Part shown: positions 22,701 to 57,566 of the stretch, piece after piece
How the letters are laid out: each line of letters opens with the position of its first letter
How positions within the stretch are numbered: the first letter of the stretch is position 1
Assembly: GCF_900634775.1 (NCBI RefSeq)
Contig: NC_041064.1
Span: 1,380,717-1,444,716 of the forward strand
Length of the DNA: 64,000 nucleotides
Source of the DNA: Gouania willdenowi
Taxonomy: Eukaryota
Direction: 5' to 3'
Program-made: the position numbers and the translations under genes
The notes under the pieces: model-generated
What the model was told of the DNA's origin: nothing
Database searches by the model: none
What the model saw: only the letters and a program-made list of their open reading frames with translations

Positions 22701-23457
22701 ATACGATGCACTGGCACGCCTTGGGATGTGGGATAAAACTCATACTGAGCTTAACTGTAGACACGTTAATCCCAAATACCTGCTTTAGGTACTACCAGTC
22801 ACTCATTCCCCCTGTCCACAGCCACCACTATTATAGCTAAGCTTCACACTTCTCACTATACTGGCTTAATTACACAATATAATAAGCACAATATGTTCTA
22901 CAACTTCACATCTCACCCTCACTGTAAAATAATCTATTTTTCCCCACCCTTTCTATCTCCTACCTTGAGTCTCTCCTCCCTGCTCCCTGCCCACCCCCCC
23001 CTTAGGGAGGGCTGGTGATAGTCACAATTAAGCAATAAAATAAATCAATTTATATTATTGCAATAACAAAACATGCATTGCTGTCTCATAATGATTGCAC
23101 TTCTTGTAGTGTTGACCTTTGACAGCATGTGCAGACATGATAAAAAAAAAAAAAAAAAGATTATTTTCTGATTTGATCCAAACCACCACTATACCCAAAA
23201 GTAATAGAGTTTGAGGTTTCCAACTATGCAGAAAGTTTGGAAAAGGTGTTCCAACAATGAGCCTGTGCAAGTTAAAAAGAAAGTAATAATAATTCCTTTA
23301 TCATTACATAACTTGTAGAGCCATAGGTCTCTGAGGGAGGTTCCATCCTCAGGTCCAACCTCCACATCCCTGTGTTTGAGCAGGAATAATATATCAGTTG
23401 TACATCAGAGAGCCTGAGGCAGAACGCTGCAGAGCTCAGCAGGTTCTCCTCCTCACT

Positions 23458-23630
23458 ATGAGCACACCTGATGAAGCTGAGCTCTGCTATCCACACCTGG
23501 GAAACTCCTCGTGCAGGAGGATCATGCGCTCTCACTCAGTGTCTGTGCTCATTTCCATCATCCTGTCCTCCATCTCTGTGCTCACTGTGACCCTCAACCT
23601 GCTGGTCATCATCTCTATCTCACACTTCAA
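23458..23630 (+). CDS. TAAR-family GPCR, copy 1, exon 1 (N-terminus plus TM1).
   Basis: ATG at 23458-23460. Translation MSTPDEAELCYPHLGNSSCRRIMRSHSVSVLISIILSSISVLTVTLNLLVIISISHFK has an N-glycosylation site and the TM1 N1.50 motif. Donor is AA|GTATTG at 23631 (phase 2). Joined to exon 2 it reads ...SHFKKLHTPTNFLL, the typical TAAR TM1-ICL1 sequence. Confidence 0.8.
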
Positions 23631-23767
23631 GTATTGACATGTTCTGTTGTTTAATGAACTGTTGTTACATTGTTGAATGTTTCTGTGTTTGACTCCTGCT
23701 GTTATCTGCTTTGATCAGAACTGTCGTATAATATAATGATCAGTGTGTTGCTCTCTAACTCCTGCAG

Positions 23768-24578
23768 GAAGCTGCACACTCCCACCAACTTCCTCCTCCT
23801 CTCTCTCGCTCTGTCAGATTTCTCTGTGGGATTTGTTTGGATTTCACAGATCCTGCTCTTAGACGGCTGCTGGTATTTCAGTGATGGCTGGTGTGTCTTT
23901 AATGCATTCTTAACTGCTTTTGTCACCTGTGCTTCAGTAGGAACTGTTGTGCTGATATCAGTTGATCGTTATGTGGCTGTTTGTGATCCAATGCACTATT
24001 CTACCAAAGTTACTCCAAACACAGCAAAGATGAGTGTTGTCTTATGTTGGTTTTGTTTCTTTGTCTTTTACACTGCAATGCTCAAAGACAATATTGAACA
24101 TCCAGGTGGGTTTAATACCTGTGTAGGAGAGTGTGTAGTTTATTTACCTCCTGTTGCAGGAATCATTCATATCATTTTTACTTTTATCTTTCCAGTGAGT
24201 ATCATAGTGGTCTTGTATGTGAGAGTGTTTGCAGTGGCTGTGTCTCAGGCCCGGGCCATGCGCTCTCATGTTACAGTGGTGACACTTCATGGATCACTGA
24301 AGGTTAACAGATCAGAGCTGAAAGCAGCCAGAACTCTGGGTGTAGTGGTTGTTGTGTTCATAATGTGTTTATCTCCACTTTATATTGCTACACTTTCAGC
24401 AGGGTTTGCAGGGTTAAAGGCATCATCTTATGTTGCTTTTTCATGTGTACATTTAATCAACTCCTTACTAAACCCTGTGATCTATGCATTTCTGTATCCT
24501 TGGTTCAGGAAATGTGTGAAATGTATTTTTTCTCTTCAGATTCTGAAGTCTGGTTCCAGTGAGGCCAACATACTGTAA
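23768..24578 (+). CDS. TAAR-family GPCR, copy 1, exon 2 (TM2-TM7 plus C-terminus). Stop codon TAA at 24576-24578. Total ~327 aa.
   Basis: Acceptor is ctcctgcAG|G at 23765-23767. The translation contains DRY (ISVDRY), C3.25, P5.50, and the TAAR fingerprint NSLLNPVIYAFLYPWF (NSxxNPxxYxxxYxWF). Position 3.32 is Thr, not Asp. Confidence 0.85.
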
Positions 24579-24725
24579 AGAGAGAGAGAGAGAGACTGCT
24601 GATGTGTAATTGTATCACACTGTGCTGTTGATGTCTGAAAATCTTCTTCTCAAACTGTGATGATTGTAGAGAGCAGCTGCTCACATGCAAAGTTTGTGTT
24701 GATGATATTTGGGAGTTGCCCTTGA

Positions 24726-24731
24726 AATAAA
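24726..24731 (+). promoter_or_regulatory. Candidate polyadenylation signal AATAAA, ~150 bp downstream of the TAAR copy 1 stop. The same motif is conserved at the equivalent position in all four units.
   Basis: Motif read in the sequence. Assignment to the TAAR transcript is inference. Confidence 0.25.
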
Positions 24732-25865
24732 ATGTGGATGATCTGCACACTAATGATGATTTGATCCAATGATTGGGATAAGTGGTGAGAAATACTTTGA
24801 GGTGAGGAAACAAATGAATGTTATTATGTAGTGATGAAACCAAATCAGGGTCTTGACATGAACTCAGGCGTTTAACTTTAACTTTACAAGCAGGATAAAT
24901 TGATGATCTTTAAATGAAAAATCCTCAGACAAATGTGCACAAACACTTGAAGGCCTGAACCTCACTGCATTATTCCTTTCATTACAGTAAAAACAATCAG
25001 AATAGGAGAGTTACATGTAACACTGTCTCTGTGTGCAGCATCACTGCCTGAAATCTAATCTACAGATGTGCCAAATGTTATAAAACATGATGATGATATG
25101 ATTCAGTGCCAGTGAGAACGACTCAAAGAATCATTTGAAGACTTTTCTTCATTATTCTAAATAGAATTACAATATTAATGTGAACAATCCAAAAATGTCA
25201 GAATTTAAAGCAATTTAAACATAAATACATATTGTGTATTTTCTTGAAGCGTAAGTGTTAAAGGGATAAAGCTGTAAAAAGGGGTGTATATACTTGTGTA
25301 TGTGTGGACAGATGAATGTATAGTGATCACATGAATTGTCGACCTTTGTACCAGATCTTTTATTGAACAGCTCCGATGACAGATGACAAGAGTTGTACTA
25401 TTTAAGAGTCGTACTATTTAAGAGGAGTATTATTTAAGAGTAGTATTATTTCCCAGTGTAATTTAATCTAGTTCATCACAAGCAGAGTTTTAACAGACTA
25501 AGCACACATGCAGGTGGACGGAGGAAGAAGTCTGTCTCTCTTCATGTCTAAGTCTATCTTTCTATCTGCATCTGTTCAAGCACAGTTATCCTCCTTTGTA
25601 CCCAGCAGAGTCTGGTCCAAACGTGATTTATCCATATACACCAGGACAGTCTAGCTCTGCTCTCTGTGTCAAAACTCCACAATGTGTAAGTATTCAAACC
25701 AAAGCAACAGAGTGTCAGGGCCTACCAGGGACAGACATTGAAAAATACTGGTAGTGGGCCATCAAAATGGAACCTTTTATTCCTCAACCCCCATAAAATG
25801 TATTAATGACCAAATCAGTAAATGTAGTTCTCTTTCATAATCTTCGTTCGATGTCTAAGTAATGT

Positions 25866-28560
25866 AGAAGTAAGTAAGTATGTACATTTTTATTTATAAA
25901 GTGCTTTTTGCAGATAAAAATCACAAAGGGCTGTACAAAATAGAGGATAAGTTAAAACAACTGGAGCAACATCATAAAAGCATAATAAAATGTAAGTGAA
26001 TTTACAACAACAGGAGCATTTATTAAAGAATAATAAAAGTTGAAGAAAAAAATGTTTAACCAAAAGCTTTACTGAAAAGCGAAGTCTTCAGGTGATTCTT
26101 AAGAGTTCACACAGTCAAGCTTCCGGAGGGACTGGTGAAGGTCATTCCAGAGTCTGGGGGCCACAGCCTAGAACTCCAGGTCTCCCTGGGTTTTAAAATT
26201 AGCTTTTGGGATCTTTAGGAGACCCTGGCCTGAAGACCAAAGGCTGCGCCCTGAAGTGTAGGGGTACAACAAGTCTGCGATATACTGAGGGGCCTGACCA
26301 TGCAAAGCACTGAAAGTCAGGACTGCAATTTTAAACAATATGCAAAATTTGACCGGTAGCCAATGAAGACTTGTAAGAATCGGGGTAATTTGGGCTTGCA
26401 GCATCATTCTGTACGATCTGAAGTCTGTTCAGTCGACTTGTTAAAACAAGTAAAAACAAAATTACAATAATCAATGCAAGACAATATAAACGCGTGGATG
26501 ATCATTTCGAGATCTGATTATGACAAGAGATTTCTCACTTTAAAGATATTTCTCAGGGGGTAAAATCAGTTTTCGGTTAGTTGACAACAGTGCCCTTCCA
26601 AATACATTGACTGATCAAACACAACCACAAGGTTTCTGAGGTTGGTTTTCACAGATGAGTCCAGAGCACCAAGGGAGTTCTTAATCAGGGGGATCTTTTT
26701 ATCAGGAGCGATGATCAGAGTGTCGATTTGTTGGAGTTTATTTGAAGATAATTTGATGACAACCAGTTTTTGATTAAAGACACACAATCCAAGAACTCAG
26801 ATAAACAGTGAAACTCTTTGTCATAAAAGGAGCAATATAGCTGAATATCATCTGCATAGAAATAAGACACATTTTCAAAACCACAGATAAACCAACCAAG
26901 AGGCATCAGGTACAATAAAAACAGGCCCCAGAACAGAGCCCTGGGCTACTCCACATGACAGGTTGGACACATTGGACATTACATCGTTAATAGTAACAAA
27001 AGTTCTTCCATTTTTATAAGAAATAAACCACTGGAGAAAAGCTCCAGAAAACCTCATCTCAGATTTGAGTCGATCAACCAGTATACTGTGATCTACAGAG
27101 TCAAAGGCAGATGTTAAATGAAGTAAAACCAAAACTGTGTCGTGACCAGAGTCAGCAGCCGTCACCACGTCACTGGAAACTTTGACAAGAGCAGTTTCAG
27201 TGGAGTGGATTGACCTGAAGCCAGATATATATTTATCATGAAAATCATGCTGTTTCAAGAATGTGGTTAGCTGCTTATCCACAACTTTTTCCCTTATTTT
27301 TGACATGAGGAGAAGTTTAGATATGGGCCGGTAATTTATAGGCTCCCCGGGATCAATATGAGGCTTTTTAAGAATGGGATTCACAATAGCATGTTTAAAG
27401 AAGCTGGGGACTGAGCCAGATTGAAGTGAAAGGTTTATCAAATTTACCATCTAACACACAATGAGGGTTCATCTTTTCCACTAAAACCTGAACATCCAGT
27501 AGGCTGACAGGAGTGAAGGAGGACCTTGAGCACACAGGGGCAGATGCAGTGCACAAGCTAACCAAGGGAGGAGTGATACTGGCCCTAATGTCTTGCACTT
27601 TGTTCACAAATAAGTTCAGAAAATTATTGGAGTCATCCTTTGTGTGCACAGGCACATGGGGGATGGGGGCGCAACAAGATTTTCAATAGTGTCAAATAAG
27701 ACTTTTAGGGTTCTCTTGTTACGCAAAACAAGATTTGAGAAAGAAGCTGAGCAAGCAAGTTTTATTTCATTTAGCTCCATTATCATTTCTTTAAGAAGTG
27801 AATTCATCAAGAAATAATTGAGCACGACCAGGAGGTTGGTAGACTAAAACAAAGTTAAAAGGGTGTTCGTTTCCAACCTTACACGTCTGAAACTTGAAGG
27901 AGTTGTACGTGTTCGTGTCCATCAGTCTGCAGCCAAGAAAGTCACGGTATACTAGCCCCAAACTGCCTCCATGACGCGTGAGTTGAGGAGTCCCAACCAC
28001 GAAGCAGTCCGGAGGGCACAGTTCAATAAGATGAACAAACTCATTCTCCCGCTGCCAGGTCTCCATGAGGCACATAACATCCAGCTCGCGGGACATGAAA
28101 AAGTCCTTCAGGAGATGTGCCTTGTTGGCTAGTGATCTAGCATTCTACTGGCACCAGCGTAGACACTTCCTCGTAAGCCCATGAAGAGCTGTGGTACAGC
28201 GGCCGAAGGCATCCCTAATCCACACCACGGTGCCGGAGTCCACCGCGTCGACCCCATTTTTTGGCAGGCTTCCTCCGCAGGACAGGTGAGCGCAGCAGAT
28301 CAGCAGGTACGAAAGCCAAGTGTGGAAGAAGTCCAGATACTTGATCCTCAAAGTTGTAGTTTAGACACACCTCATAAGATTAGTTAAGATTAATAAGTGC
28401 CTGACGGTCATACACTATCAATGCAGTGATATTTTGGCACAAAATACTGAACAATGCAGCAACAAACAATAGTTTCAGCAGAGCAGACTCTATGGCCATC
28501 TTGTCAAGGCTATAGTGACCAGCTAACTGCCAGTGTTAGCGCTAGCTAACAACCTCAACT
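25866..28560 (-). mobile_element. L2-clade LINE, unit 1 copy, internally deleted. Contains a partial EN, the pre-RT region, RT, the ORF2 C-terminus, and a 3'UTR ending in a (GTAA)n-type tail at ~25866-25885.
   Basis: Minus-strand ORFs: EN MSRELDVMCLMETWQRENEFVHLIELCP...VLVYQPPGRAQLFLDEFTS (27791-28096). RT ...[53 protein letters not shown]...VLVLLHLTSAFDSVDHSILVDRLK (26875-27450). C-terminus ...LTSLHWLPVKFCILFKIAVLTFSALHGQAPQYIADLL (26168-26407). The 3' end aaagtgctttataaataaaaatgtacatacttacttac is typical of an L2 tail. The 5' boundary is approximate. Confidence 0.75.
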
Positions 28561-28829
28561 CCCTGCCTGTGCACCCACTCACAAGGGATAGAGGCCAAAG
28601 CCCCTCACACCAGAGGATTTGGAGACTCCAGAGCCTGACTCTTTTGATGCAAGAATAAAATATCGAGCCAAGACACACACCGGGTCTGCTCGAGCTGCTT
28701 GGGGCTGAAACATGCCTGGCTGGCGGTCGATGTTCCCGGCTTCTGTTGACACTGTGCGGTGTTCACAGTGAAGAGTCTCCACAGATGCCATGCTAGCTTG
28801 TCTGGGCTGGGGATCGGTGAAAGACATCC

Positions 28830-31800
28830 TTGAACTGGACTGTGGGGAGGATTAAGATGCCGCCTCTGAACCCCTCATATCAGAGAATGAAGAAGAAGAC
28901 ACTGTCTTCATCACTCCGGCCCTCCGTTGCCTCTCGGGATGGAGATGAGGGAAGCACACCAGCTCCAATTCTCAATGGCTCAAATATGCTCCATATGTGC
29001 AAACGCACTGCTGCCCGGCAAGCCATTCTCTGTCGGAAAAGATTTCCCACGGCCAATAGCAGCAGAAGCGCGCTGCCCGGTGCCTCATCCCTCAACTGTG
29101 AAGCAGACCCAGGCACCCCTGGAATGCCTGGGTCTGCTCCGCTTGCCTTCGGTGGAGCCACTTGTTCCGCAACTGTCAGCAGTGTCCTCCCGGAGGCTGA
29201 GCCTGCCATTCAAGTCTGACTGTCTCCAGTCAGCCCTGACTGAGAAGGCTTACAAGGCAGTGGCGCTTACTGCGAGAGCGCTCAACGTTCTCTCCTTGCA
29301 CACTGCCTATCAGGCTGAGCTGTGCAAGGTTTTTGGGCTTACTCAGGACCCGGCCAGGTGGGAGGAGTTGTCAGTTGTCACCGACCTGTGTCTTTGTGTT
29401 TACCGCTGAAGGAAACTGGTCGGACGGAGAAAAGGGCGATGTCCTGGACATGCCAGTAGTCCCAGAGGGGGTTTTTGGATCTGCATTGGCCTCGATGCAA
29501 TGGCGGTGGGAATCCAACAAGAAGGATGACGGGGCTCCCTGCCTCTGTTTCCCTTGTAAAACCCCAGCTCCATCTCAGGGCTTGCAGTTTAAAATGTCTA
29601 AACTGTCTGTGCCCTGGCCCATCCTGCCATTTCAAAACAGTCTTTCTGGCTGTTCCAATAAGCCTTCGGCCTCGGCGCAGCATGCCCAGGCCAGGAAGAA
29701 GAAGAGAGCAGCCTGACCGCCCCTCTCTCCTCCGGTGACACAGCTGGAAGTCCCTCGTTCTCCAGCTCCACCTATTTTGCTTTCGAGCTTGCACTCATGG
29801 GTCCCCCACGCCCCTGTCTCCCCGCTACCATGCCCCGTACCGGAGGTCGCCTTGAAAGACGGACATGTTTCGACAAAGGACTCAGCGGTTTCCCCTCTTT
29901 CATGTCCACAAGCATGCACACACACACACACAATTTATTTAAAATAATAACGTGTCTCGCTGTTGCACCCAGGCCACTGGCCAAGGGCGCAGGAAATGAA
30001 AGCATAATCTGTCACAATAAGCAGCGCAGTGACAGCTCCCACTGTTTCCCCTCGGATGTGCAAACGATGCTTGCCCTGCGGTATTTGATCTTGCATTTAT
30101 GTGCACTGAACAGATACAGGTTCAGGCTGCTTATGCATGCCTCCCTGCTGCGTCTTTTGTGACAGAACAATTGGTTCGTGTCTGTCTACCTGAAGGACGC
30201 GTATTTCCACATCTCAATATATCCTCCCCACAGAAAGTATCTGAAAAGCTTTCCGGGGGATAGGTTACATATACCGCTTGCTCACTCTCTTCTGCTTCTT
30301 GACAAAGGGACAAAGGCAGTCGCATTTTTCATCTCCTGCTCTCCTCCCTATCTACCCTTGCTGCTTGTTTTGTCTGCTGCTATTAGGAGACTCTCTTTGT
30401 ATTCATCCAAAACCGAAATTATGAAATTGGTCTGCTGGTCATTTAATGTTATTTATGAAGTTTTTCAATGAAAATACCAGGCCGAGGTGAGCCTGCATGC
30501 CCTGATGGCTCTTTTCGAGCTGGATACACAATGAATTCCTGGAAGGTAGTATGTCTGTCGCTATTCCCCATTGAGGACATCAAGGATATATACATGAATG
30601 GAATCATGTTAGCAGGGATGCTGCTAATTGGAGCTGGCGGCTATCTGATCTATCGCAAAGTCTGTATTACGTTTGCAGCCATTTTGGGAAGGCTGCCAGT
30701 CAACACTGAAGGTTTGGGCAGGGCGTTGAACTCTGACTATAAGGAATCGATCTTGGAAAGAATGGAGAGGATGTTTGATCCCACAATATTAGATTACTGT
30801 GACCAGAGACTTTCAAGGATCCTGGAAAGAATGCTAGCCTGTAACAAAAACAATTCACTATCAACGATTGGCCTCCCACAACATGCTTAAGGATGTGTCC
30901 AATTTCACTGGGATGTTTACAGATGTGACTCTCTGTCCTCATCCCAGCTGAACTCTTGGCTCTGAACCATAACATCCGACTGTATCAGAGGAGAGCAAAG
31001 TTTATTGAGTCTGTCTTCTCTGCTTTGGTTTGGTTTCCGGCCCTCTACCCCCCACCTTCCCCTCCAGCTCATGGAAGTGTGTGGAGAAGCGCCTACTACT
31101 GGCAGCACGCTGCAACCCCCCTCCCCCAGCGGCTGGATATCCCCTCCCCCTCTTTGCCCCCGACCCACATCCAACCCCCACCATCCCATGTGCTATACTG
31201 TGACTGTGTTATCTTATTTGTGTTTTTCTAGCTGAGAGGTTTTTCCTGGTTCTGTACTTTGTTCTCCTTTTGAGAATTCAGTTCATAATCAGTTTTTCCC
31301 CTAACCTCTCCTTCTGTTGTTTTCCCTTTTTTCATCTAAATATGGGGCGCCTCCAATGCCCTTGACCCACAATTCTGCCGTTTTTGTCTCTCATGTTATT
31401 TGTTACTGTTTTTCCATGTTTTTATCTGTGAAAAGCACTCTATAAATAAAGATTACTTTCTGACTTACTCCCTTTCTGTCTTTCTTTAAGCCCGAGGGTG
31501 TAAGTCTTGCTGAGACGGCAGGGCATCCGCTTGTCGGAGGTGGAAGCCAGAGCGCACACGCGTATGCTATTACCTGTCACCTGTTCTACCTGGGTTTTGT
31601 GATAAACTCGGAAAAGAGCATGTTGTCCCCAGCATAGGAAATGGCCTTCCTGGTACTATCCCTGCACTCAGCGTCTTTCACGACGCACCTCTCAGTGGAA
31701 CGAGTGAAAGCGTTCAGGGCATGCCTCACACTTTTCCAACTGTGCAAATCTGTTCAATTCAGATTATGTCTTCGGGAATTCGGGCTGATGGCATCTGTCA

Positions 31801-33490
31801 TCCTCCTACTCTGCCTCGGTCGCCTCCAGAATTCTAGCTGTGGGTGGACTCGTGCGGGCTGGACCACATACAGAATGGCACACGGAGGGTACTGGTCAAG
31901 CCGGAGTGTGCCGAGGCTTTATACAGAGTCCCGGTTTTCATGACGCACGGTGTGCCTACCGGGTGCTGTTATGTCCAGGAAGGTGGTCACCATGGACACC
32001 AGCCTGACAGGTTGGGGTGGGGTTCACGAGGGCCGGTCTCTGAGGGGCCACTGGAGTGTGGACCTCCAGCGCTCTCGCATAAATTATTTGGAGCTTTCAG
32101 CGGTTTTACTCACTGAAAATTATCCTCCCGTCTCTCATGGGACACCATATCCTGGTGAGGACGAACAATACAACGACGGTGGCGTATATCAACGCCAGGG
32201 TGGATTGCTCTGCTGTCGGTTTCATATGTTGGCACGCAAACTGATTCTGTGGAGTTGTGGTTGCTTCCTCTCTCTGAGGGCGACACACATCCAGAGAGTC
32301 CTGAACACGGACGCTGACCTGTTGTCCAAGGACGCGCTGTTGTCCAAGGACGCGCTGCTGTACAGGGTGTGGATGTTACACCCGTACATGGTGCAACAGT
32401 TACCGACCCGTTACGAGTTCTTTTCACCGAGGCAGGAGATGCACAGTGTACGCTGTTTAACTCCCTGCCCAGCACGGGCGCTCCCCTCGGCATACTATAC
32501 AGATTGCCTGAGCGTTGTTTGGGGATGGTGTCACCAGAAGTGACATACCCCGTTTCAGTGTCCGGTAGGAATGATTTTGTCATTTTTGCAGGATCTGATT
32601 GACGAACGGAAAGACTGTGACAGTGTGTTTGGCAGTGATTGCCGCCTGTCACGTGGGCTTTGGGAAGAAAACAGCAACACCTAACCCCTAACCCAACACC
32701 CAGTGATTTGCCGTTTTATGAAAGGAGCATGCAGGCTCCTCCCCGTGTCCAGACCGCTGGTGCCACCGTGGGATCTGGCAGTAGAGGGACAAAAATGTCT
32801 TTTTTTTGAACCGCTAAGGGAGACAGACTTTAAGTTTGTCTCTCTGAAAACAGTTTTGTTACTGGCTCTGGTGGGTCAGTGACATCCATGCGTTTTTGGT
32901 ACACCCGTCATTCGCTCAGCTCTTCCCGGGCAATGTAAGGCTGATTTTGAAGACGAACTTGGCCTTTGTACTGAAGGTGTTGGGCTCATGTTCTCCAATT
33001 GACCTCATGACCTTCTCTATCTCATAGGGTGAGCAGCGGCCTCATTTGTTGTATCCGGTCTTTGCAGTGCACGCTTACAGTGCATGGACATGACGGGGAG
33101 CTTCAACTGTTCGTCTCCTGGGCTAATCTTCATAAGGGAAAACCTGTCACAAAGCAGCGCCTGTCCCCCTTTGTGGTGGAGACTGGTGCCCTGCTGTGCC
33201 TGGGTGATAGAGGTTGCCACCGTGTTCTGTGGGGCCAGTATAGTTCTGGGGGTGCCGCGGAGTGAGTTTCCGGCTGTGCTGCTTGGCACGTCCCTGGGGC
33301 CTCGCTGTGCCGCTTGTGTTCCTCTCCAGTTGCTTGCTGTCTGGACAGGCCGTGCTCACAGCAGACAGGCCTCCTACACAGACACTACACTTAATTTCCA
33401 GCTGGTCTGGCTCTTTCACGTTGTGTATCACACCCCTATCCAACCCATGGGGGTCTGGATGATGGGGGCCCCGTGCCACTAATGCTTTTT
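28830..33490 (+). mobile_element. DIRS-like YR retroelement, unit 1 copy. Degenerate: gag-like region, RT, RNase H and a tyrosine recombinase, all frameshifted.
   Basis: RT is shown by ...LCALNRYRFRLLMHASLLRLL.QNNWFMSVYLKDAYFHISIYPPHRKYLKSFPGDRLHIP (30080-30300). RNase H is shown by MDTSLTGWGGVHEGRSLRGHWSVDLQRSRINYLELSAVLL...VYQRQGGLLCC...LRATHIQRVLNTDADLLSKD (31990-32350). YR is shown by PVSRPLVPPWDLAV... and ...LQLFVSWANLHKGKPVTKQRLSPFVVE (32740-33200). The 5' boundary is approximate. Confidence 0.7.
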
Positions 33491-34002
33491 ATGTTTTATT
33501 AAGCTTAACATGTAAACATTATCAGTGCGGGTGGAAAAAGTATGTGAGCAGGCCGTTTCTGAGAGAGATCTTAATTTTTTTTTTTTTTTTCTTTTAACCT
33601 TGTCTGCACATGAGGGAGATCTTAATAAATGTGAGTAAAGTACAATCATCATCTGAATCTGTTCTAGTGTCTAAAGGACCCTTAACTGAGCAAGTGATTT
33701 GTCACACAAGTATAAGAACACCTCAAACCTGGACAATTTGGTGTTATCAAATTAATAGAAATGGCATCTGGATGGTGTAAAGCAAACTGTATGATGTCAT
33801 CAAGAATAGACGCCCTCACAGGAGCAAGAATACATTCTGTTTTTATCATTACATAACTTGTAGAGCCATAGGTCTCTGAGGGAGGTTCCATCCTCAGGTC
33901 CAACCTCCACATCCCTGTGTTTGAGCAGGAATAATATATCAGTTGTACATCAGAGAGCCTGAGGCAGAACGCTGCAGAGCTCAGCAGGTTCTCCTCCTCA
34001 CT

Positions 34003-34175
34003 ATGAGCACACCTGATGAAGCTGAGCTCTGCTATCCACACCTGGGAAACTCCTCGTGCAGGAGGATCATGCGCTCTCACTCAGTGTCTGTGCTCATTTC
34101 CATCATCCTGTCCTCCATCTCTGTGCTCACTGTGACCCTCAACCTGCTGGTCATCATCTCTATCTCACACTTCAA
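34003..34175 (+). CDS. TAAR-family GPCR, copy 2, exon 1.
   Basis: Identical in protein to exon 1 of copy 1. Donor is AA|GTAATG at 34176. Confidence 0.8.
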
Positions 34176-34312
34176 GTAATGACATGTTCTGTTGTTTAAT
34201 GAACTGTTGTTACATTGTTGAATGTTTCTGTGTTTGACTCCTGCTGTTATCTGCTTTGATCAGAACTGTCGTATAATATAATGATCAGTGTGTTGCTCTC
34301 TAACTCCTGCAG

Positions 34313-35123
34313 GAAGCTGCACACTCCCACCAACTTCCTCCTCCTCTCTCTCGCTCTGTCAGATTTCTCTGTGGGATTTGTTTGGATTTCACAGATCCTG
34401 CTCTTAGACGGCTGCTGGTATTTCAGTGATGGCTGGTGTGTCTTTAATGCATTCTTAACTGCTTTTGTCACCTCTGCTTCAGTAGGAACTGTTGTGCTGA
34501 TATCAGTTGATCGTTATGTGGCTGTTTGTGATCCAATGCACTATTCTACCAAAGTTACTCCAAACACAACAAAGATGAGTGTTGTCTTATGTTGGTTTTG
34601 TTTCTTTGTCTTTTACACTACAATGCTCAAAGACAATATTGAACATCCAGGTGGGTTTAATACCTGTGTAGGAGAGTGTGTAATTTATTTACCTCCGGTT
34701 GCAGGAATTGTGAGTCTCCTTCTGAAATTCCTCATTCCAGTGAGTATCATAGTGGTCTTGTATGTGAGAGTGTTTGCAGTGGCTGTGTCTCAGGCCCGGG
34801 CCATGCGCTCTCATGTTACAGTGGTGACACTTCATGGATCACTGAAGGTTAACAGATCAGAGCTGAAAGCAGCCAGAGCTCTGGGTGTAGTGGTTGTTGT
34901 GTCTATAATGTGTTTATCTCCACTTTATATTGCTACACTTTCAGCAGGGTTTGCAGGGTTAAAGGCATCATCTTATGTTGCTTTTTCATGTGTACATTTA
35001 ATCAACTCCTTACTAAACCCTGTGATCTATGCATTTCTGTATCCTTGGTTCAGGAAATGTGTGAAATGTATTTTTTCTCTTCAGATTCTGAAGTCTGGTT
35101 CCAGTGAGGCCAACATACTGTAA
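34313..35123 (+). CDS. TAAR-family GPCR, copy 2, exon 2. Stop at 35121-35123.
   Basis: Same motifs as copy 1. The TM5 segment reads AGIVSLLLKFLIP where copy 1 reads AGIIHIIFTFIFP. TM3 reads VTSAS where copy 1 reads VTCAS. Confidence 0.85.
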
Positions 35124-36596: not shown

Positions 36597-38717
36597 ACCT
36601 AAACTGTTTCACACATACAGGACTTCAGGAACTTAACTCTATTATTTCATTCTCCAAACCATCGACCTGCCTTTCAGATCCGATCCCAACTAAGCTGTTT
36701 AAAGAAGTTGTTCCCCTGGTCTGCCCATCTTTGTTGGAGACAATAAATATATCCCTATCAATAGGCTACGTGCCACAGTCCTTTAAAGTAGCTGTAATCA
36801 AACCCCTTCTCAAAAAACCTACTCTTGATTCCAGCACTTTAGCAAACTACAGGCCTATATCTAATCTTCCTTTTATTTCAAAGATTCTTGAGAAAGTTGT
36901 GGCGGCTCAGCTCTGTGACTTCCTTCAAAACAACAGCCTGTTCGAGGACTTCCAGTCAGGTTTTAGAGCTCAACACAGCACAGAGACTGCTTTAGTTAAA
37001 GTAACTAATGATCTACTCTGGGCTTCAGATGAAGGACGACTCTCAGTGCTGGTTTTATTAGATCTTAGTGCAGCTTTTGACACTATAGATCACTATATTC
37101 TACTAGAGAGATTAGAGAAATTACTTAAAATCACAGGGACTGCCCTAAACTGGTTTAAGTCCTACCTATCTGATAGGTACCAGTTTGTACACGTGAATAA
37201 TAAGTCTTCTGTGTACACTAAAGTAAGCTACTGGGTTCCTCAGGGCTCTGTGCTAGGTCCAATCCTCTTCTGTATCTATATGATCCCCCTTGGTAATGTT
37301 ATGAGAAAATACTCTGTTAACTTTCACTGCTATGCTGATGATACCCAACTGTATGTATCAATGAAGCCAGGTGAGACAAATCAGCTATCTAAACTTGAGG
37401 TGTGTCTAAAGGACATTAGGGCCTGGATGCACCAAAATTTTCTTCTTCTTCACTCAGACAAGACTGAGGTCATTGTACTGGGCCCACGACACCTTAGAGA
37501 AACCTATGCTAGCCTAACTGCCCTAGATGGCATTACTCTGGCACAAAGCACAACTGTTAGAAACCTTGGGGTTTTATTTGATCAGGACTTATCCTTCAAC
37601 TCTCACATAAAACAAACTTCAAGAGCTGCCTTCTTTCATCTCCGTAACATTGCTAAAATCAGACCTATCCTGTCTCAGGGCAACACCGAAAAGCTAGTCC
37701 ATGGTTTTGTTACCTCTAGACTGGATTATTGTAATTCTCTTTTAGCAGGCTGCCCGAGCAAGTCGCTTAAGACACTTCAGCTGGTTAAAAATGCTGCAGC
37801 ACGTGTACTGACTAAAACTAGGAGAAGAGATCACATTACTCCTGTATTAGCCTCTCTGCATTGGCTTCCCATAAAATATAGAATAGAATTCAAGATTCTT
37901 CTTCTCACTTATAAAGCCCTAAATGGACAGGCACCAGCCTATCTCAAGGAGCTTGTAGTGCCATACAATCCCCCCAGAACACTACGCTCTCAAAATGCTG
38001 GACTACTCGTTGTTCCATTTGTCTCTAAAAGTAGTATAGGAAGAAGAGCTTTCAGTTATCAGGCCCCACTTCTCTGGAACCATCTACCAACCACGGTTCG
38101 GGGAGCAGACACCCTCTCTACCTTTAAGGTTAGGCTCAAAACATTCCTCTTTGATAAAGCTTTTAGTTAGGAACCAGCTCATAGCTCATAGTTAAGATGC
38201 AATAGGCATAGACTGCCGGGGGGGGGGGTCTGGCATGCTCGGTTGGAGAGAGGTTGGAGAGGGCGTTAAGAGAGAGGTCATTTAGGTTAGAGAGGGACCG
38301 GAGAGGGTCCCATTCCTCTCTCAAACACTCCCTCTATGTCTGCTTCTTCCCTTGTGTGTTTGCTCCTGTACTCCTTCTGGCTTTTGTCTTGCAGGTTCGT
38401 GGGATCCTTAGTGTGGAGTTACAGAGTCTCAACAACTCTGTCTCCACCCTTTCCTCTGCACACACCCAACACAGCATAACGTGGATGGCTGTTCATCATA
38501 GGAATGGGATCCACACAAGGTTCCTGCTGCTTAACAGAAGGTTTTCCTTGCCGCCATGATGAATTCATGTTGGGTGTGGGATACATATGTATGTGTATAT
38601 ACGTATATATGCATATGTGTGTATCCATAAAATGAAGAGTCCGTCCTTAAGACTGCTCTACTGTAAAGTGTCTTGAGATACCATTGGTTATGATTTGGCG
38701 CTATACAAATAAAAGAT
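36597..38717 (+). mobile_element. 5'-truncated L2-type LINE copy (a family different from the minus-strand L2). It has an intact 479-aa ORF covering RT plus the C-terminal domain, and a 3'UTR ending in (TGAT)n.
   Basis: ORF 36731-38170 shows ...[27 protein letters not shown]...[23 protein letters not shown]...[20 protein letters not shown]...[10 protein letters not shown]...[34 protein letters not shown]...[15 protein letters not shown]. The tail reads gcgctatacaaataaaagattgattgattga. The element is absent from the orthologous position in units 1, 3 and 4. Confidence 0.75.
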
Positions 38718-39834
38718 TGATTGATTGAGATCTGATTATGGCAAGAGATTTCTCACTTTAAAGATATTTCTCAGGGGGTAAAATCAGTTTTAGGTCAGTT
38801 GACAACAGTGCCCTTCCAAATACATTGACTGATCAAACACAACCACAAGGTTTCTGAGGTGGGTTTTCACAGATGAGTCCAGAGCACCAAGGGAGTTCTT
38901 AATCAGGGGGATCTTTTTATCAGGAGCGATGATCAGAGTGTCGCTTTGTTGGAGTTTATTTGAAGATAATTTGATGACAACCAGTTTTTGATTAAAGACA
39001 CACAATCCAAGAACTCAGATAAACAGTGAAACTCTTTGTCATAAAAGGAGCAATATAGCTGAATATCATCTGCATAGAAATAAGACACATTTTCAAAACC
39101 ACGGATAAACCAACCAAGAGGCATCAGGTACAATAAAAACAAAACAGGCCCCAGAACAGAGCCCTGGGCTACTCCACATGACAGGTTGGACACATTGGAC
39201 ATTACATCGTTAATAGTAACAAAAGTTCTTCCATTTTTATAAGAAGTAAACCACTGGAGAACAGCTCCAGAAAACCTCATCTCAGATTTGAGTCGATCAA
39301 CCAGTATACTGTGATCTACAGAGTCAAAGGCAGATGTTAAATGAAGTAAAACCAAAACTGTGTCGTGACCAGAGTCAGCAGCCGTCACCACGTCACTGGA
39401 AACTTTGACAAGAGCAGTTTCAGTGGAGTGGATTGACCTGAAGCCAGATATATATTTATCATGAAAATCATGCTGTTTCAAGAATGTGGTTAGCTGCTTA
39501 TCCACAACTTTTTCCCTTATTTTTGACATGAGGAGAAGTTTAGATATGGACCGGTAATTTATAGACTCCCCGGGATCAATATGAGGCTTTTTAAGAATGG
39601 GATTCACAATAGCATGTTTAAAGAAGCTGGGGACTGAGCCAGATTGAAGTGAAAGGTTTATCAAATTTACCATCTAACACGCAATGAGGGTTCATCTTTC
39701 CCACTAAAACCTGAACATCCAGTAGGCTGACAGGAGTGAAGGAGGACCTTGAGCACACAGGGGCAGATGCAGTGCACAAGCTAACCAAGGGAGGAGTGAT
39801 ACTGGCCCTAATGTCTTGCACTTTACTCCAGTTT

Positions 39835-45600: not shown

Positions 45601-46114
45601 TTATGTTTTATTAGGCTTAACATGTAAACATTATCAGTGCGGGTGGAAAAAGTATGTGAGCAGGCCGTTTCTGAGAGAGATCTTAATTTATTTCTTTTTT
45701 TTTCTTTTAACCTTGTCTGCACATGAGGGAGATCTTAATAAATGTGAGTAAAGTACAATCATCATCTGAATCTGTTCTAGTGTCTAAAGGACCCTTAACT
45801 GAGCAAGTGATTTGTCACACAAGTATAAGAACCTGAAAACCTGGACAATTTGGTGTTATCAAATTAATAGAAATGGCATCTGGATGGTATAAAGCAAACT
45901 GTATGATGTCATCAAGAATAGACGCCCTCACAGGAGCAAGAATACATTCTGTTTTTATCATTACATAACTTGTAGAGCCATAGGTCTCTGAGGGAGGTTC
46001 CATCCTCAGGTCCAACCTCCACATCCCTGTGTTTGAGCAGGAATAATATATCAGTTGTACATCAGAGAGCCTGAGGCAGAACGCTGCAGAGCTCAGCAGG
46101 TTCTCCTCCTCACT

Positions 46115-46287
46115 ATGAGCACACCTGATGAAGCTGAGCTCTGCTATCCACACCTGGGAAACTCCTCGTGCAGGAGGATCATGCGCTCTCACTCAGTGTC
46201 TGTGCTCATTTCCATCATCCTGTCCTCCATCTCTGTGCTCACTGTGACCCTCAACCTGCTGGTCATCATCTCTATCTCACACTTCAA
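46115..46287 (+). CDS. TAAR-family GPCR, copy 3, exon 1.
   Basis: Identical in protein to exon 1 of copy 1. Donor is AA|GTAATG. Confidence 0.8.
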
Positions 46288-46424
46288 GTAATGACATGTT
46301 CTGTTGTTTAATGAACTGTTGTTACATTGTTGAATGTTTCTGTGTTTGACTCCTGCTGTTATCTGCTTTGATCAGAACTGTCGTATAATATAATGATCAG
46401 TGTGTTGCTCTCTAACTCCTGCAG

Positions 46425-47235
46425 GAAGCTGCACACTCCCACCAACTTCCTCCTCCTCTCTCTCGCTCTGTCAGATTTCTCTGTGGGATTTGTTTGGATT
46501 TTTCAGATCCTGCTCTTAGACGGCTGCTGGTATTTCAGTGATGGCTGGTGTGTCTTTAATGCATTCTTAACTGCTTTTGTCACCTGTGCTTCAGTAGGAA
46601 CTGTTGTGCTGATATCAGTTGATCGTTATGTGGCTGTTTGTGATCCAATGCACTATTCTACCAAAGTTACTCCAAACACAGCAAAGATGAGTGTTGTCTT
46701 ATGTTGGTTTTGTTTCTTTGTCTTTTACACTGCAATGCTCAAAGACAATATTGAACATCCAGGTGGGTTTAATACCTGTGTAGGAGAGTGTGTAGTTTAT
46801 TTACCTCCTGTTGCAGGAATCATTCATATCATTTTTACTTTTATCTTTCCAGTGAGTATCATAGTGGTCTTGTATGTCAGAGTGTTTGCAGTGGCTGTGT
46901 CTCAGGCCCGGGCCATGCGCTCTCATGTTACAGTGGTGACACTTCATGGATCACTGAAGGTTAACAGATCAGAGCTGAAAGCAGCCAGAGCTCTGGGTGT
47001 AGTGGTTGTTGTGTCTATAATGTGTTTATCTCCACTTTATATTGCTATACTTTCAGCAGGGTTTGCAGGGTTAAAGGCATCATCTTATGTTGCTTTTTCA
47101 TGTGTACATTTAATCAACTCCTTACTAAACCCTGTGATCTATGCATTTCTGTATCCTTGGTTCAGGAAATGTGTGAAATGTATTTTTTCTCTTCAGATTC
47201 TGAAGTCTGGTTCCAGTGAGGCCAACATACTGTAA
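46425..47235 (+). CDS. TAAR-family GPCR, copy 3, exon 2. Stop at 47233-47235.
   Basis: Nearly identical to copy 1, including the TM5 version AGIIHIIFTFIFP. It differs from copy 1 at a few codons (for example WISQIL is WIFQIL, and ATLSAG is AILSAG). Confidence 0.85.
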
Positions 47236-51489: not shown

Positions 51490-54400
51490 CCTTGAACTGG
51501 ACTGTGGGCAGGGTTAAGATGCCGCCTCTGAACCCCTCATATCAGAGAATGAAGAGGAAGACACTGTCTTCATCACTCCAGCCCTCCGTTGCCTCTCGGA
51601 ATGGAGATGAGGGAAGCACACCAGCTGCAATTCTCAATGGCTCGAATATGCTCGATGTGTGCAAACGCACTGCTGCCCGGCAAGCCATTCTCTGTCAGAA
51701 AAGAATTCCCACGGCCAAGGGTGCACCAAGGCATTTTTCCCCGTCTTCCGGAGCTGCTCAAAGTAGCGCATTCATGGAAGGACCGCCCCATTAGCACCAG
51801 AAGCGCGCTGCCCGGTGCCTCATCACCACAGCCAACACAGCATAACGTGGATGGCTGTTCATCATAGGAATGGGATCCACACAAGGTTCCTGCTGCTTAA
51901 CAGAAGGTTTTCCTTGCCGCCATGATGAATTCATGTTGGGTGTGGGATACATATGTATGTGTATATACGTATATATGCATATGTGTGAATCCATAAAATG
52001 AAGAGTCCGTCCTTAAGACTGCTCTACTGTAAAGTGTCTTGAGATACCATTGGTTTTGATTTGGCGCTATACAAATAAAAGATTGATTGATTGATTGATT
52101 GATCCCTCAACTGTGAAGCAGACCCAGGCACCCCTGGAATGCCTGGGTATTGCTCCACTTTCTTCCGGTGGAGCCACTCGTTAAGCAACTGTCAGCAGTG
52201 TCCTCCCGGAGGCCGAGCCTGCCATCCAAGTCTGACCGTCTCCAGTCAGCCCTGACTGAGAAGGCTTACAAGGCAGTGGCGCTTACTGTAAGAGCGCTCA
52301 ACGTCCTCTCCCTGCACACTGCCTATCAGGCTGAGCTCTGCAAGGTTTTTGGGCCAACTCAGGACCCGGCAGGTGGGAGGAGATGTCAGTTGTCACCGAC
52401 CTGTGTCTTTAACGCTAAGCAGTCCAGGCGACAGGGAGAGTGATGGAGCTATAGTGCTGCGAGAAACCTGTCGGACAGAGAAATGGGTGATGTCCTGGAC
52501 ATGCCAGTAGTCCCAGAGGGGGTTTTTGGATCCGCAATGGTGGTGTGAAGCAAACAATAAGGATGACGAGGCACCCCGCTTCTGTTTCTCTTGTAAAACC
52601 CCAGCTGCATCTCAGGGCTTGCAGTTTAAAATGTCTAAACTGTCTGTGCCCTGGCCCGTCCTGCCGTCTCAAAACAGTCTTTCTGGCTGGTCCAATAAGC
52701 CTTCGGCCTTGGCTACAGCTCCGCCGGCACAGCCTGCGCAGCATGCCCAGGCCAGGAAGAAGAAGAGAGCAGCCTGACAGTAACACAGCTGGAAGTCCCT
52801 CGTTTTCCAGCTCCACCTATTTTGCTTTCAAGCTTGCACTCGTGGGTCCCCCATGCCCCTGTCTCCCCGCTACCACACCTCGGACCGGAGGTCGCCTTGA
52901 AAGATGGACATGTTACGATGAAGGACTCAGCGGTTTCCCCTCTTTCATGTCCACAAGCATGCACACACACACACACACGATTTATTTAAAATAATATGTG
53001 TCTCGCTGTTGCACCCAGGCCAAGGGCCGAGGGCGCAGGAAATGAAAGCAAAATCTGTCACAATAAGCAGCACGGTGACTCCCTTTGTTCCCCTCGGGTG
53101 AGCAGACGATGCTCGCCCTGCGGTATTTGCTCTATCTTGGATCTATGTGCACTGAACAGATACAGGTTCAGGCTGCTTACGCACACCTCCCTGCTGCGTC
53201 TTGTGCGACAGAACAATTGGTTCACGTCTGTCGATCTGAAGGACGCGTATTTCCACATCTCAATATATCCTCCCAACAGAAAGTATCTGAAAAGCTTTCC
53301 AGGGGATAGGTTACATATACCGCGTGCTCACTCTCTTCTGCTTCTTGACAAAGGGACAAAGGCAGTCGCATTTTTCTTCTCCCGCTCTCCTCCCTATCTA
53401 CCCTTGCTGCTTGTTTTGTCTGCTGCTATTAGGAGACTCTCTTTGTATTCATCCAAAACCGAAACTATGAAATTGGTCTGCTGGTCATTTAATGTTATTT
53501 ATAAAGTTTTTTCAATGAAAAGACCAGGCCGAGGTGAGCCTGCATGCCCTGATGGCTCTTTTTGAGCTGGATACACAATAAATTCCTGGAAGGTTGTATG
53601 TCTGTCACTATTTTCCATTGCTTTGGTTTTCGCCGGCCCTCTACCCCCCACCTTCCCCTCCAGCTCATGGAAGTGTGTGGAGCAGCGCCTACTACTGGCT
53701 GCATGCTGCGCCCCCCTACCCCAGCGGCTGGATATCCCCTCCCCCTCTTCGCCCTGACCCACGTCCAACGCCCAACATCCCATGTGCTATACTGTGACTG
53801 TGTTATCTTATTTGTGTTTTTCTAGCTGAGAGGTTTTGTCTGGTATTCTATTACGTTACCTGTCCTACCTGGGTTTTGTGATAAACTCGGAAAAGAGCAT
53901 GTTGTCCCCAGCATAGGAAATGGCCTTCCTGGTACTATCCCTGCATTCAGTGTCTTTCACGAAGCACCTCTCAGTGGAACGGGTGAAAGCGTTCAGGGCA
54001 TGCCTCACACTTTTCCAACTGTGCAAATCTGTTCAATTCAGATTATGTCTTCGGGTATTCGGGCTGATGGCATCTGTCATCCTCGTACTCTGCCTCGGTC
54101 GCCTCCAGAATTCCAGCTGTGGGTGGACTCGTGCGGGCTGGACCACATACAGAATGGCACACGGAGGGTACTGGTCAAGCCGGAGTGTGCCGAGGCTTTA
54201 TGCAGTCCCTACCGGGGGCTGTCGTGTCCAGGAAGGTGGTCATCATGGACACTAGCCTGAAAGGCTGGGGTTCACGAGGGCCGGTCTCTGAGGGGCCACT
54301 GGAGTGTGGACCTCCAGCGCTCTCGCATATATTATTTGGAGCTTTCAGCGGTTTTACTCTCGCTGAAAAGTATCCTCCCGTCTCTCATGGGACACCATGT

Positions 54401-56445: not shown

Positions 56446-56618
56446 ATGAGCACACCTGATGAAGCTGAGCTCTGCTATCCACACCTGGGAAACTCCTCGT
56501 GCAGGAGGATCATGCGCTCTCACTCAGTGTCTGTGCTCATTTCCATCATCCTGTCCTCCATCTCTGTGCTCACTGTGACCCTCAACCTGCTGGTCATCAT
56601 CTCTATCTCACACTTCAA
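56446..56618 (+). CDS. TAAR-family GPCR, copy 4, exon 1.
   Basis: Identical in protein to exon 1 of copy 1. Confidence 0.8.
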
Positions 56619-56755
56619 GTAATGACATGTTCTGTTGTTTAATGAACTGTTGTTACATTGTTGAATGTTTCTGTGTTTGACTCCTGCTGTTATCTGCTTT
56701 GATCAGAACTGTCGTATAATATAATGATCAGTGTGTTGCTCTCTAACTCCTGCAG

Positions 56756-57566
56756 GAAGCTGCACACTCCCACCAACTTCCTCCTCCTCTCTCTCGCTCT
56801 GTCAGATTTCTCTGTGGGATTTGTTTGGATTTTTCAGATCCTGCTCTTAGACGGCTGCTGGTATTTCAGTGATGGCTGGTGTGTCTTTAATGCATTCTTA
56901 ACTTCTATTTCAACTGCTGCTTCAGTAGGAACTGTTGTGCTGATATCAGTTGATCGTTATGTGGCTGTTTGTGATCCAATTCACTATTCTACCAAAGTTA
57001 CTCCAAACACAGCAAAGATGAGTGTTGTCTTATGTTGGTTTTGTTCTGTGGTCTGTTACACTACAATGCTCAAAGACAATATAAAACATCCAGGTGGGTT
57101 TAATACCTGTGTAGGAGAGTGTGTAATTTATGTACCTCCGGTTGCAGGAATTGTGAGTCTCCTTCTGAAATTCCTCATTCCAGTGAGTATCATAGTGGTC
57201 TTGTATGTGAGAGTGTTTGCAGTGGCTGTGTCTCAGGCCCGGGCCATGCGCTCTCATGTTACAGTGGTGACACTTCATGGATCACTGAAGGTTAACAGAT
57301 CAGAGCTGAAAGCAGCCAGAGCTCTGGGTGTAGTGGTTGTTGTGTCTATAATGTGTTTATCTCCACTTTATATTGCTACACTTTCAGCAGGGTTTGCAGG
57401 GTTAAAGGCATCATCTTATGTTGCTTTTTTATGTGTGTTTTTAATCAACTCCTTACTAAACCCTGTGATCTATGCATTTCTGTATCCTTGGTTCAGGAAA
57501 TGTGTGAAATGTATTTTTTCTCTTCAGATTCTGAAGTCTGGTTCCAGTGAGGCCAACATACTGTAA
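56756..57566 (+). CDS. TAAR-family GPCR, copy 4, exon 2. Stop at 57564-57566. This is the most divergent copy.
   Basis: Same scaffold as the others. TM5 is the copy 2 type (AGIVSLLLKFLIP). Unique changes in TM3 (FLTSISTAASVGT), TM4 (CWFCSVVCYTTML), ECL2 (DNIKHPGG) and TM7 (AFLCVFLINS). Confidence 0.85.

Follow-up and report, generated by a model that had tools for sequence, protein, structure and literature searches.

How can the genes of a tandem array be held at roughly 99.2% identity over ~4.8 kb and yet differ at about half of the sites in four pocket-position cassettes of 10-30 bp? This question is raised by a 64,000-nt stretch of the genome of the clingfish Gouania willdenowi (the window), in which lie the first four members of a tandem array of genes for trace amine-associated receptors (TAARs), referred to as copies 1 to 4; copy 5 lies outside it. 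An earlier note on this DNA described a patch in transmembrane helix 5 (TM5) that alternates between two versions, A and B, from one copy to the next while the flanking DNA is near-identical. The pattern was attributed to gene conversion or patch transfer between paralogs, or alternatively to the duplication of a two-gene block.

Comparison of the four repeat units revealed a homogenised gene-bearing segment, four short and deeply diverged cassettes in exon 2 and, in copy 2, a tract that conflicts with the DNA on both of its sides. Taken as a whole, the explanation that we favour, with moderate confidence, joins homogenised heads, deeply diverged cassettes and one short conversion from a type II gene into copy 2.

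Results

Two versions of the TM5 cassette

Both versions of the patch were recovered, A in copies 1 and 3 and B in copies 2 and 4 (Table 1). A 29-mer of A occurs exactly twice in the window (24163-24191 and 46820-46848), as does a 29-mer of B (34708-34736 and 57151-57179), and no further match to either version was found on either strand of the window with up to three mismatches. A and B differ at 14 positions within 26 bp. All ten consecutive codons between an identical GGA and an identical CCA are different, so that the earlier estimate of about 10 of 12 codons was right at the codon level, and eight of the ten change the residue. Four of the differences are synonymous, and five of the eight replacements are conservative hydrophobic exchanges. 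The proportions of synonymous and nonsynonymous sites that differ (pS and pN) are 0.60 (4 of 6.7 sites) and 0.43 in TM5, compared with 0.009 and 0.008 in the remaining coding sequence of copies 1 and 2.

These differences are not evenly spread along the gene. A four-way alignment of the units gave 3,837 collinear head columns, with 20 sites that join copies 1 and 3 against copies 2 and 4. Of these, 17 fall in 115 bp, a clustering matched by none of 200,000 permutations, and the argument that it is too tight for random drift is upheld. The whole-unit alignment contains 24 sites of this pattern, which reaches 89 bp upstream of the patch through extra sites at offsets 339, 402 and 416 of the exon 2 open reading frame (ORF). 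The alternation itself is uninformative, because the A-B-A-B order has a chance of 1/3 given two As and two Bs and because copy 5, which is also B, breaks it.

A compensated frameshift and a micro-inversion were both rejected as the origin of the patch: A and B are 53% identical in register, compared with at most 42% in shifted registers and at most 41% for the reverse complement.

Homogenised heads and older spacers

Self-comparison of the window showed repeat units of 10.3-12.1 kb, the first of which begins at 23297. Each unit has a head of ~4.8 kb, in which 160 bp of 5' flank are followed by the two exons and a 3' flank of ~3.5 kb that includes a decayed reverse transcriptase (RT) fragment, and a retroelement-derived spacer of one of two classes, alpha or beta. 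Non-coding divergence in the heads is 0.70-0.95% in all six pairs, with almost no informative sites and a star-like pattern. In the spacers, divergence is 1.9-3.0% within a class (unit 1 vs 2 and unit 3 vs 4) and 5.5-7.4% between classes, and the between-class comparison yields 87 sites that separate units 1 and 2 from units 3 and 4. These sites fill the spacers from 28121 on; in the last 2.3 kb, where unit 4 runs past the window end, sites separating units 1 and 2 from unit 3 continue to 33834. CpG hypermutability of the GC-richer spacers was rejected as a cause of the young appearance of the heads, because the contrast holds when CpG sites are left out (heads 0.5-0.7%; spacers 2.0% within and 4.5% between classes). 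Since the heads are so much more alike than the spacers, they were homogenised after the unit duplications. The gene-bearing segment is under concerted evolution, and its non-coding flanks are more alike than the age of the duplications predicts, as in a divergence peak under such evolution.

Insertions and deletions of transposable elements give the same grouping, units 1 and 2 against units 3 and 4, as had been noted before: a 383-bp insert is common to units 3 and 4, and two segments common to units 1 and 2 are absent in unit 3. The label "gag-like DIRS" attached earlier to one region was not confirmed, Pfam giving only a weak match to RVT_1.

As the least homogenised part of the unit, the spacers are the best record of its duplication history, and they speak directly to the second of the two original proposals, in which an A-B block was duplicated to A-B-A-B and everything but TM5 was then homogenised. 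That model predicts spacers paired 1 with 3 and 2 with 4; the observed pairing is 1 with 2 and 3 with 4, in substitutions as well as in indels. It does account for the order of the cassettes and for the fact that copies 1 and 3 differ at just seven exon 2 sites, but copies 2 and 4 differ at 23, the same count as copies 1 and 2, and the fifth copy is B and not A. We consider block duplication very unlikely. The same spacer pairing led us to reject false haplotype duplication, which also predicts 1 with 3 and 2 with 4.

Repeats of 10-12 kb with a gene region ~99% identical are a hard target for long-read assembly and short-read polishing, and an artefact might have arisen if reads of one paralog had corrected another or if haplotypes had been placed in tandem. 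However, each unit has private indels and transposable element insertions, private substitutions occur no more than 50 bp from the patch, at offset 485 of copy 3 and offset 408 of copy 4, and copy 2 has a private site at offset 288. Moreover, polishing errors do not typically replace 14 of 26 bases cleanly. An artefactual origin is highly improbable.

Four deeply diverged cassettes in exon 2

The TM5 patch is one of several. The density of variable sites in exon 2 is 5.67 per 100 bp, with 36 of the 46 lying within 5 bp of another, versus 1.5-1.9 scattered sites per 100 bp in the flanks and a single site in the 310 bp of exon 1 and intron. The exon 2 sites cluster in TM3 (residues 108-112, positions 3.33-3.37), TM4 (155-158, 4.53-4.56), TM5 (190-199) and TM7 (283 and 286, 7.39 and 7.42). 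The statement that the patch stands in near-identical surroundings is correct for copies 1-3 but not for copy 4, which has its own clusters in TM3, TM4 and TM7.

When the four cassettes were pooled and copy 3 was compared with copy 4, pS was 0.52 and pN 0.43, against 0.013 and 0.009 in the other coding sequence. The excess of synonymous differences in the cassettes is significant by Fisher's test, both relative to the rest of the coding sequence (P = 7e-9) and relative to a spacer divergence of 7.4% (P = 7e-6). What the cassettes contain is DNA of old or foreign origin rather than new point mutations.

This depth bears on the idea that no DNA was transferred and that positive selection acted in situ on ordinary point mutations of young duplicates. 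Teleost TAARs have been reported to be under diversifying selection (PMC4415300), and the changes occur at positions that contact ligand in other TAARs, both of which would favour such a process. Selection on residues would have to explain, however, why 4 of 6.7 synonymous sites of the TM5 cassette differ when ~1% do so elsewhere, why five of the eight replacements are conservative hydrophobic ones, and why two genes whose spacers do not make them sisters have the same 14-base haplotype, which convergence cannot explain. We regard it as extremely unlikely.

Apart from the clusters, several lone differences are adjacent two-base changes in one codon, as in S84F, E168K and F255S (offsets 109-110, 359-360 and 622-623; 23845-23846, 57083-57084 and 24358-24359). 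Such tandem substitutions are more than single-base mutation would give and may be further micro-conversions.

Two proposed gene types and the discordant tract of copy 2

Copy 5 shares with copy 4 the TM3 sequence SISTA, the TM4 sequence SVVC, TM5 version B and Phe7.42. The TM3, TM4 and TM7 cassettes appear to define two gene types, type I for copies 1-3 and type II for copies 4 and 5. When each spacer is counted with its downstream gene, an alpha spacer lies before copy 2 and before copy 3, a beta spacer lies before copy 4 and presumably also before copy 5, and copy 1 stands at the array edge. Phased in this way, the spacer classes agree with the cassette types, the left block being type I and the right block type II; the grouping of 1 with 2 and 3 with 4 arises only if spacers are counted with the upstream gene. 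After this re-phasing, the TM5 tract of copy 2 is the only discordant piece. The conflict between transposable elements and genes described in the earlier note consequently survives for this tract, and the remainder of it was an effect of where the repeat unit was taken to begin.

Copy 2 is type I at each diagnostic site through offset 331 and again from offset 706; at offsets 339, 402, 416 and 428-453 its sequence is that of copy 4. It differs from copy 3, another type I gene, at 23 exon 2 nucleotides, 17 of which lie in the TM5 tract. The outer bounds of the tract are 34613-34986, since the nearest type I markers on its two sides are at 34612 and 34987, and a conversion tract of 115-374 bp may be deduced. 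The 17 sites in 115 bp that join copies 1 and 3 against 2 and 4, next to spacers that join 1 and 2 against 3 and 4, form a signal in conflict with both flanks, as is expected of a conversion tract. Copies 2 and 4 carry identical 29-mers, so that a candidate donor exists within the array. Gene conversion between paralogs, the first of the two original proposals, is the best explanation of these observations.

In the model that we prefer, continuing non-allelic gene conversion or unequal exchange keeps the ~4.8 kb segment near-identical across units, and the retroelement-derived spacers retain an older history in their alpha and beta classes. Within exon 2, each of four short cassettes exists in two deeply diverged versions, synonymous sites included, and TM5 B would be the type II version. 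Copy 2, a type I gene, would have taken up a type II tract of 115-374 bp over TM5 in one short-tract non-allelic gene conversion, and this single conversion would account for the A-B-A-B(-B) order.

Weighing the proposed conversion into copy 2

Several points weigh against this explanation. In terms of mutational events, just two neighbouring markers of type II, the TM5 cassette and offset 339, make up the tract of copy 2; the sites at offsets 402 and 416 are common to copy 4 only, or are unreadable in copy 5. Copy 5 is placed after copy 4 by deduction. The synonymous divergence of the cassettes (~0.5) is far above the 5.5-7.4% between spacer classes, so that plain retention since the alpha/beta split does not suffice: either earlier homogenisation affected the spacers too, or the cassettes are imports from another source. 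In the coding sequence beyond the cassettes, pN and pS are about equal, which gives no evidence of purifying selection on these genes. No cassette donor was found among about 70-90 annotated Gouania TAAR proteins, in which no protein matched B at more than 7, or A at more than 6, of the ten residues, and a TM5-centred 42-aa protein query gave no donor candidate either. Finally, transfer into copy 2 is the direction that we infer, and a history in which B is ancestral would need equally many events.

In that history B was the TM5 sequence of both types and was simply kept in copy 2, and A appeared later, arising in or being imported into copy 1 or copy 3 and then being copied to the other while skipping copy 2. 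Copies 1 and 3 show no difference across offsets 111-484, a region that includes 339-453, as would be expected after a recent transfer. Moreover, type II cassettes are consistently nearer than type I cassettes to other paralogs, which makes the type I states look derived. Nevertheless, A and B are as deeply diverged (pS 0.6) as the other cassettes that separate the types, which would place them in the same old layer of type I and type II differences, and a late A needs an external donor, of which there is no trace among the annotated Gouania TAAR proteins. Because of this equal depth we rank ancestral B second and consider it unlikely.

Import from elsewhere could also have been recent. A cassette of 26-30 bp may have come from a distant TAAR paralog or pseudogene by ectopic micro-conversion anchored in the conserved flanks of TM5, and have then spread within the array or been imported twice. 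The material for this is at hand, as dozens of TAAR paralogs lie on several contigs and the TM5 flanks are conserved in all of them. Synonymous sites in the cassettes differ ~ten times as much as even the oldest spacers do, and A and B are 53% identical, as distant homologues are; both also point to a remote source. On the other side, neither cassette is present in any annotated Gouania TAAR protein (best 7 of 10 residues), and a donor 73% identical to the array genes could not have supplied the 89 bp upstream with just three differing sites. Recent ectopic import is quite unlikely in our judgement, and we return to a conversion from a type II gene into copy 2 as the preferred explanation.

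Predicted position of the cassettes in the ligand pocket

Ligand contacts of mTAAR7f have been described at 3.32, 3.36, 3.37, 5.42, 6.48, 6.51, 7.39 and 7.42, with 3.33, 6.52 and 7.43 added in molecular dynamics (PMC11364543). The residues that vary in the array map to 3.33-3.37, 5.41-5.49, 7.39 and 7.42. By alignment and numbering, 5.42, 3.33, 3.37, 7.39 and 7.42 are mTAAR7f contact positions, and three of the four clusters coincide with known contacts, the numbering of TM5 in TAARs being uncertain by one residue. In 47 Gouania paralogs, many of the array-variable residues correspond to the columns with the greatest variability. Differences in 106 other paralog pairs (at least 90% identity) are ~2-fold enriched in the same segments, and none of these 106 pairs has a TM5 swap equally complete.

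The His/Ser residue of the patch sits eight residues N-terminal of the TM5 proline and aligns with Asp5.42 of zebrafish TAAR13d, in agreement with the earlier placement of the 5.42-homologous position within the patch. In zebrafish TAARs of clade III, Asp5.42 has experimental support as a non-classical amine contact (Li et al. 2015, PMC4695389). The position proposed as a substitute amine-contact site is included in the patch, but neither A nor B has Asp5.42, and both known amine anchors are absent from A and B receptors (Thr at 3.32; His or Ser at 5.42). Likewise, the description of the patch as ligand-facing is only partly borne out: about three of the eight changed residues (5.42, 5.43 and 5.46) are expected to face the pocket, and the other changes are conservative hydrophobic swaps. 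Judged from the predicted proteins, B would add a positive charge, Lys5.46, to the pocket face of TM5, and a shift in ligand selectivity from A to B is likely. The cassettes probably persist since selection for different odorant tuning resists homogenisation.

Identity of the receptor genes

The four exon 2 ORFs of the array are each 843 nt long (23736-24578, 34281-35123, 46393-47235 and 56724-57566). All four genes are intact two-exon genes, in which exon 1 and exon 2, joined across an intact GT..AG intron, encode a 327-aa receptor; exon 1 supplies the same 58 N-terminal residues in every copy, and the intron, of 137 bp, lies in intracellular loop 1. The protein of copy 1 is 100% identical to XP_028292703 (P0001), annotated "trace amine-associated receptor 13c-like", that of copy 4 is XP_028291861 (P0121), and copy 5 corresponds to XP_028291864 (P0122). 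The exact 327-aa proteins of copies 2 and 3 were absent from a collection of 15 billion sequences (NCBI, UniProt and others) in which copies 1, 4 and 5 were present, and these two genes seem to be unannotated in public gene sets.

The TAAR fingerprint of TM7, NSxxNPxx[YH]xxx[YF]xWF, is found in all four copies as NSLLNPVIYAFLYPWF. Best database matches are annotated TAARs with PF00001, and the closest relatives with a solved structure are zebrafish TAAR13d/a/c/e, TAAR13d being the best (E = 6e-48). The next closest Gouania paralogs are only ~73% identical to the array genes. Counted from R3.50 of the DRY motif, residue 3.32 is Thr in all four copies, in agreement with the loss of Asp3.32 in teleost clade III; the Asp5.42 of that clade is replaced by His (A) or Ser (B). 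Among the 47 Gouania paralogs, 5.42 is Asp in 21, Asn in 18 and His in 4. From these features the array genes are predicted to be clade III-like TAAR olfactory receptors.

Family A percomorph TAARs have one intron, in intracellular loop 1, with a Phe-Lys or Phe-Arg junction near codon 55-58 (Azzouzi et al. 2015, PMC4415300). The array genes share this single intron, exon 1 ending in ...HF(K) and exon 2 starting with KLHTP. The junction that yields the RefSeq protein (...HFK|KLH..., 23629-23770) implies a phase-2 intron and an exon 1 of 173 nt, unlike the homologous introns of cichlid TAARs, which have been described as phase 0 (Azzouzi et al., PMC4415300).

Two further residues of helix 6 were noted. 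The toggle-switch position 6.48 (CWxP motif) is Leu in all array copies (residues 258-261, MCLSP; for example 24367-24378). CLTP was seen in Gouania paralogs, and zebrafish TAAR13 has CWLP. Activation may work differently in the array genes, given Leu6.48, whereas mTAAR7f contacts its ligand through Trp6.48. Residue 255 (6.44, the Phe of the P-I-F motif) is Phe in copy 1 and in all 47 other Gouania paralogs and Ser in copies 2-5, through a two-base change (TTC vs TCT; codons at 24358-24360, 34903-34905, 47015-47017 and 57346-57348). This would result either from the spread of a derived Ser along the array or from a conversion that restored Phe to copy 1.

Transposable elements and other features

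A 268-bp part of the insert common to units 3 and 4 matches, at 98.9% identity, the 3' tail of a long interspersed nuclear element (LINE) that is private to unit 2 and has an intact RT ORF. LINE tails truncated at their 5' side and with a (GATT)n end lie at 51827-52094 in unit 3 and 62174-62445 in unit 4, which suggests that this LINE family was recently active. A second RT fragment, on the minus strand, occurs in the homogenised 3' flank of every unit (38933-39673, 49371-50111 and 59709-60449, with a degenerate one at ~26700-27450); its ORF of 246 aa (RVT_1, E = 1.5e-22) is open in units 2-4 and not in unit 1.

Upstream of the array, a long imperfect repeat of the (TG/CA)n type at 353-1367 gives rise, in several frames, to spurious ORFs 230-330 codons long. 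A coiled-coil-like ORF of 224 aa lies on the minus strand at 6279-6953 and has a sub-threshold Pfam match to Baculo_FP_2nd (E = 1.4e-4); it is probably a piece of a transposable element.

Table 1. Positions in the window of the genes, cassettes, heads, spacers and elements of the array
Feature	Position	Strand	Remarks
TAAR copy 1 (type I, TM5 cassette A)	23458..24578	+	exon 1 23458-23630, intron 23631-23767, exon 2 23768-24578
TAAR copy 2 (type I at TM3/TM4/TM7, TM5 cassette B)	34003..35123	+	exon 1 34003-34175, exon 2 34313-35123
TAAR copy 3 (type I, TM5 cassette A)	46115..47235	+	exon 1 46115-46287, exon 2 46425-47235
TAAR copy 4 (type II, TM5 cassette B)	56446..57566	+	exon 1 56446-56618, exon 2 56756-57566
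TM5 cassette A, codons 190-199, IIHIIFTFIF (5.40-5.49; His5.42, Thr5.46)	24162..24191	+	identical copy 46819-46848
TM5 cassette B, codons 190-199, IVSLLLKFLI (5.40-5.49; Ser5.42, Lys5.46)	34707..34736	+	identical copy 57150-57179
Type II TM3 cassette, copy 4 (SISTA vs AFVTC; 3.33-3.37)	56904..56917	+	also in copy 5
Type II TM4 cassette, copy 4 (SVVC vs FFVF; 4.53-4.56)	57046..57055	+	also in copy 5
TM7 cluster, copy 4 (S7.39L, H7.42F)	57430..57439	+	Phe7.42 also in copy 5
Minimal discordant type II-like tract, copy 2	34620..34734	+	17 sites in common with copy 4
Homogenised gene-bearing head, unit 1	23297..28100	+	equivalents begin at 33842, 45954 and 56285
Alpha spacer (decayed retroelement) after copy 1	28121..33841	+	alpha partner ~40300-45953
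Beta spacers	~50780-56284, ~61120-64000	+	decayed retroelement sequence
Insert common to units 3 and 4 (383 bp)	51719..52101	+	also 62066-62452
LINE private to unit 2	36598..38726	+	479-aa RT ORF 36731-38170, RVT_1 E = 4e-35

Discussion

The cassettes sit on or beside ligand-contact residues, where selection for tuning would resist homogenisation and leave a "peak of divergence", and occasional short conversions would then produce new combinations of cassettes, of which copy 2 may be an example. A more general proposal is that the TAARs of this clingfish diversify their pockets cassette by cassette, with a small stock of ready-made, deeply diverged modules of 10-30 bp in TM3, TM4, TM5 and TM7 being retained in the genome and shuffled by templated micro-conversion among homogenised paralogs to give combinatorial receptors. 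We hold this to be a speculation, and a rather unlikely one. If true, cassette shuffling would correspond, in the germline, to the conversion of immunoglobulin V genes, and pockets with no acidic amine contact and with Lys5.46 may bind non-amine (acidic) odorants.

The array offers an unusually clean natural case of concerted evolution and functional diversification together in one chemoreceptor array. Copy 2 would be a natural chimera, a type I receptor with a type II TM5, and copies 1-4 could show which helix sets ligand choice in clade III-like TAARs that have neither of the canonical aspartates. There are also practical consequences: undetected mosaics of this kind would mislead TAAR trees and dN/dS estimates in teleosts, and public protein sets seem to lack two of these four intact genes.

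With the clade III TAARs, the array genes have in common the TM7 fingerprint, the loss of Asp3.32 (Thr here), a big lineage-specific tandem expansion and variation centred on 5.42. They are unlike the Asp5.42 receptors of that clade in having His5.42 (A) or Ser5.42 with Lys5.46 (B), and Leu in place of Trp at 6.48. In the literature that we searched, no report of gene conversion in teleost TAARs, no work on Gouania TAARs and nothing that bears directly on the array in work on zebrafish TAAR13 structures was found.

Short-tract gene conversion among paralogs occurs in MHC class II genes, in the chicken immunoglobulin V genes, which are converted by pseudogenes, and in CYP21A2/CYP21A1P. In these cases, as in the clingfish array, tens to a few hundred bp with clustered substitutions are moved and mosaic genes result. 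The clingfish case is unlike that of the immunoglobulin V genes in concerning germline evolution in a chemoreceptor array, for which no dedicated machinery or somatic process is implied, and it is unlike the group as a whole in that a candidate donor can be identified only within the array, from the lineage of copies 4 and 5 to copy 2, and not for the origin of the cassettes. In clusters of olfactory receptor and vomeronasal genes, tandem genes exchange sequence, and both homogenisation and the creation of new combinations have been proposed as the outcome; gene conversion in the primate olfactory receptor cluster of chromosome 17 was reportedly described by Sharon et al. in 1999. The clingfish cassettes, placed at pocket positions, are sharper than what is usually described for such clusters.

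The closest parallel is the peak of divergence that forms at selected sites under gene conversion, exemplified by exon 5 of the red and green opsins (Innan 2003; Teshima & Innan 2008; reviewed in PMC3924837). Both systems consist of tandem paralogs with homogenised introns and flanks in which a short coding stretch at tuning residues stays diverged, so that coding divergence exceeds that of the flanking non-coding DNA. The clingfish array has at least five genes and four cassettes, not two genes and one exon; its peaks are narrower (10-30 bp) and deeper (~50% of sites, synonymous sites included); and one cassette appears to have moved between gene types. The array is a new and clean instance of known processes, in which concerted evolution with selected peaks of divergence is combined with a short conversion tract.

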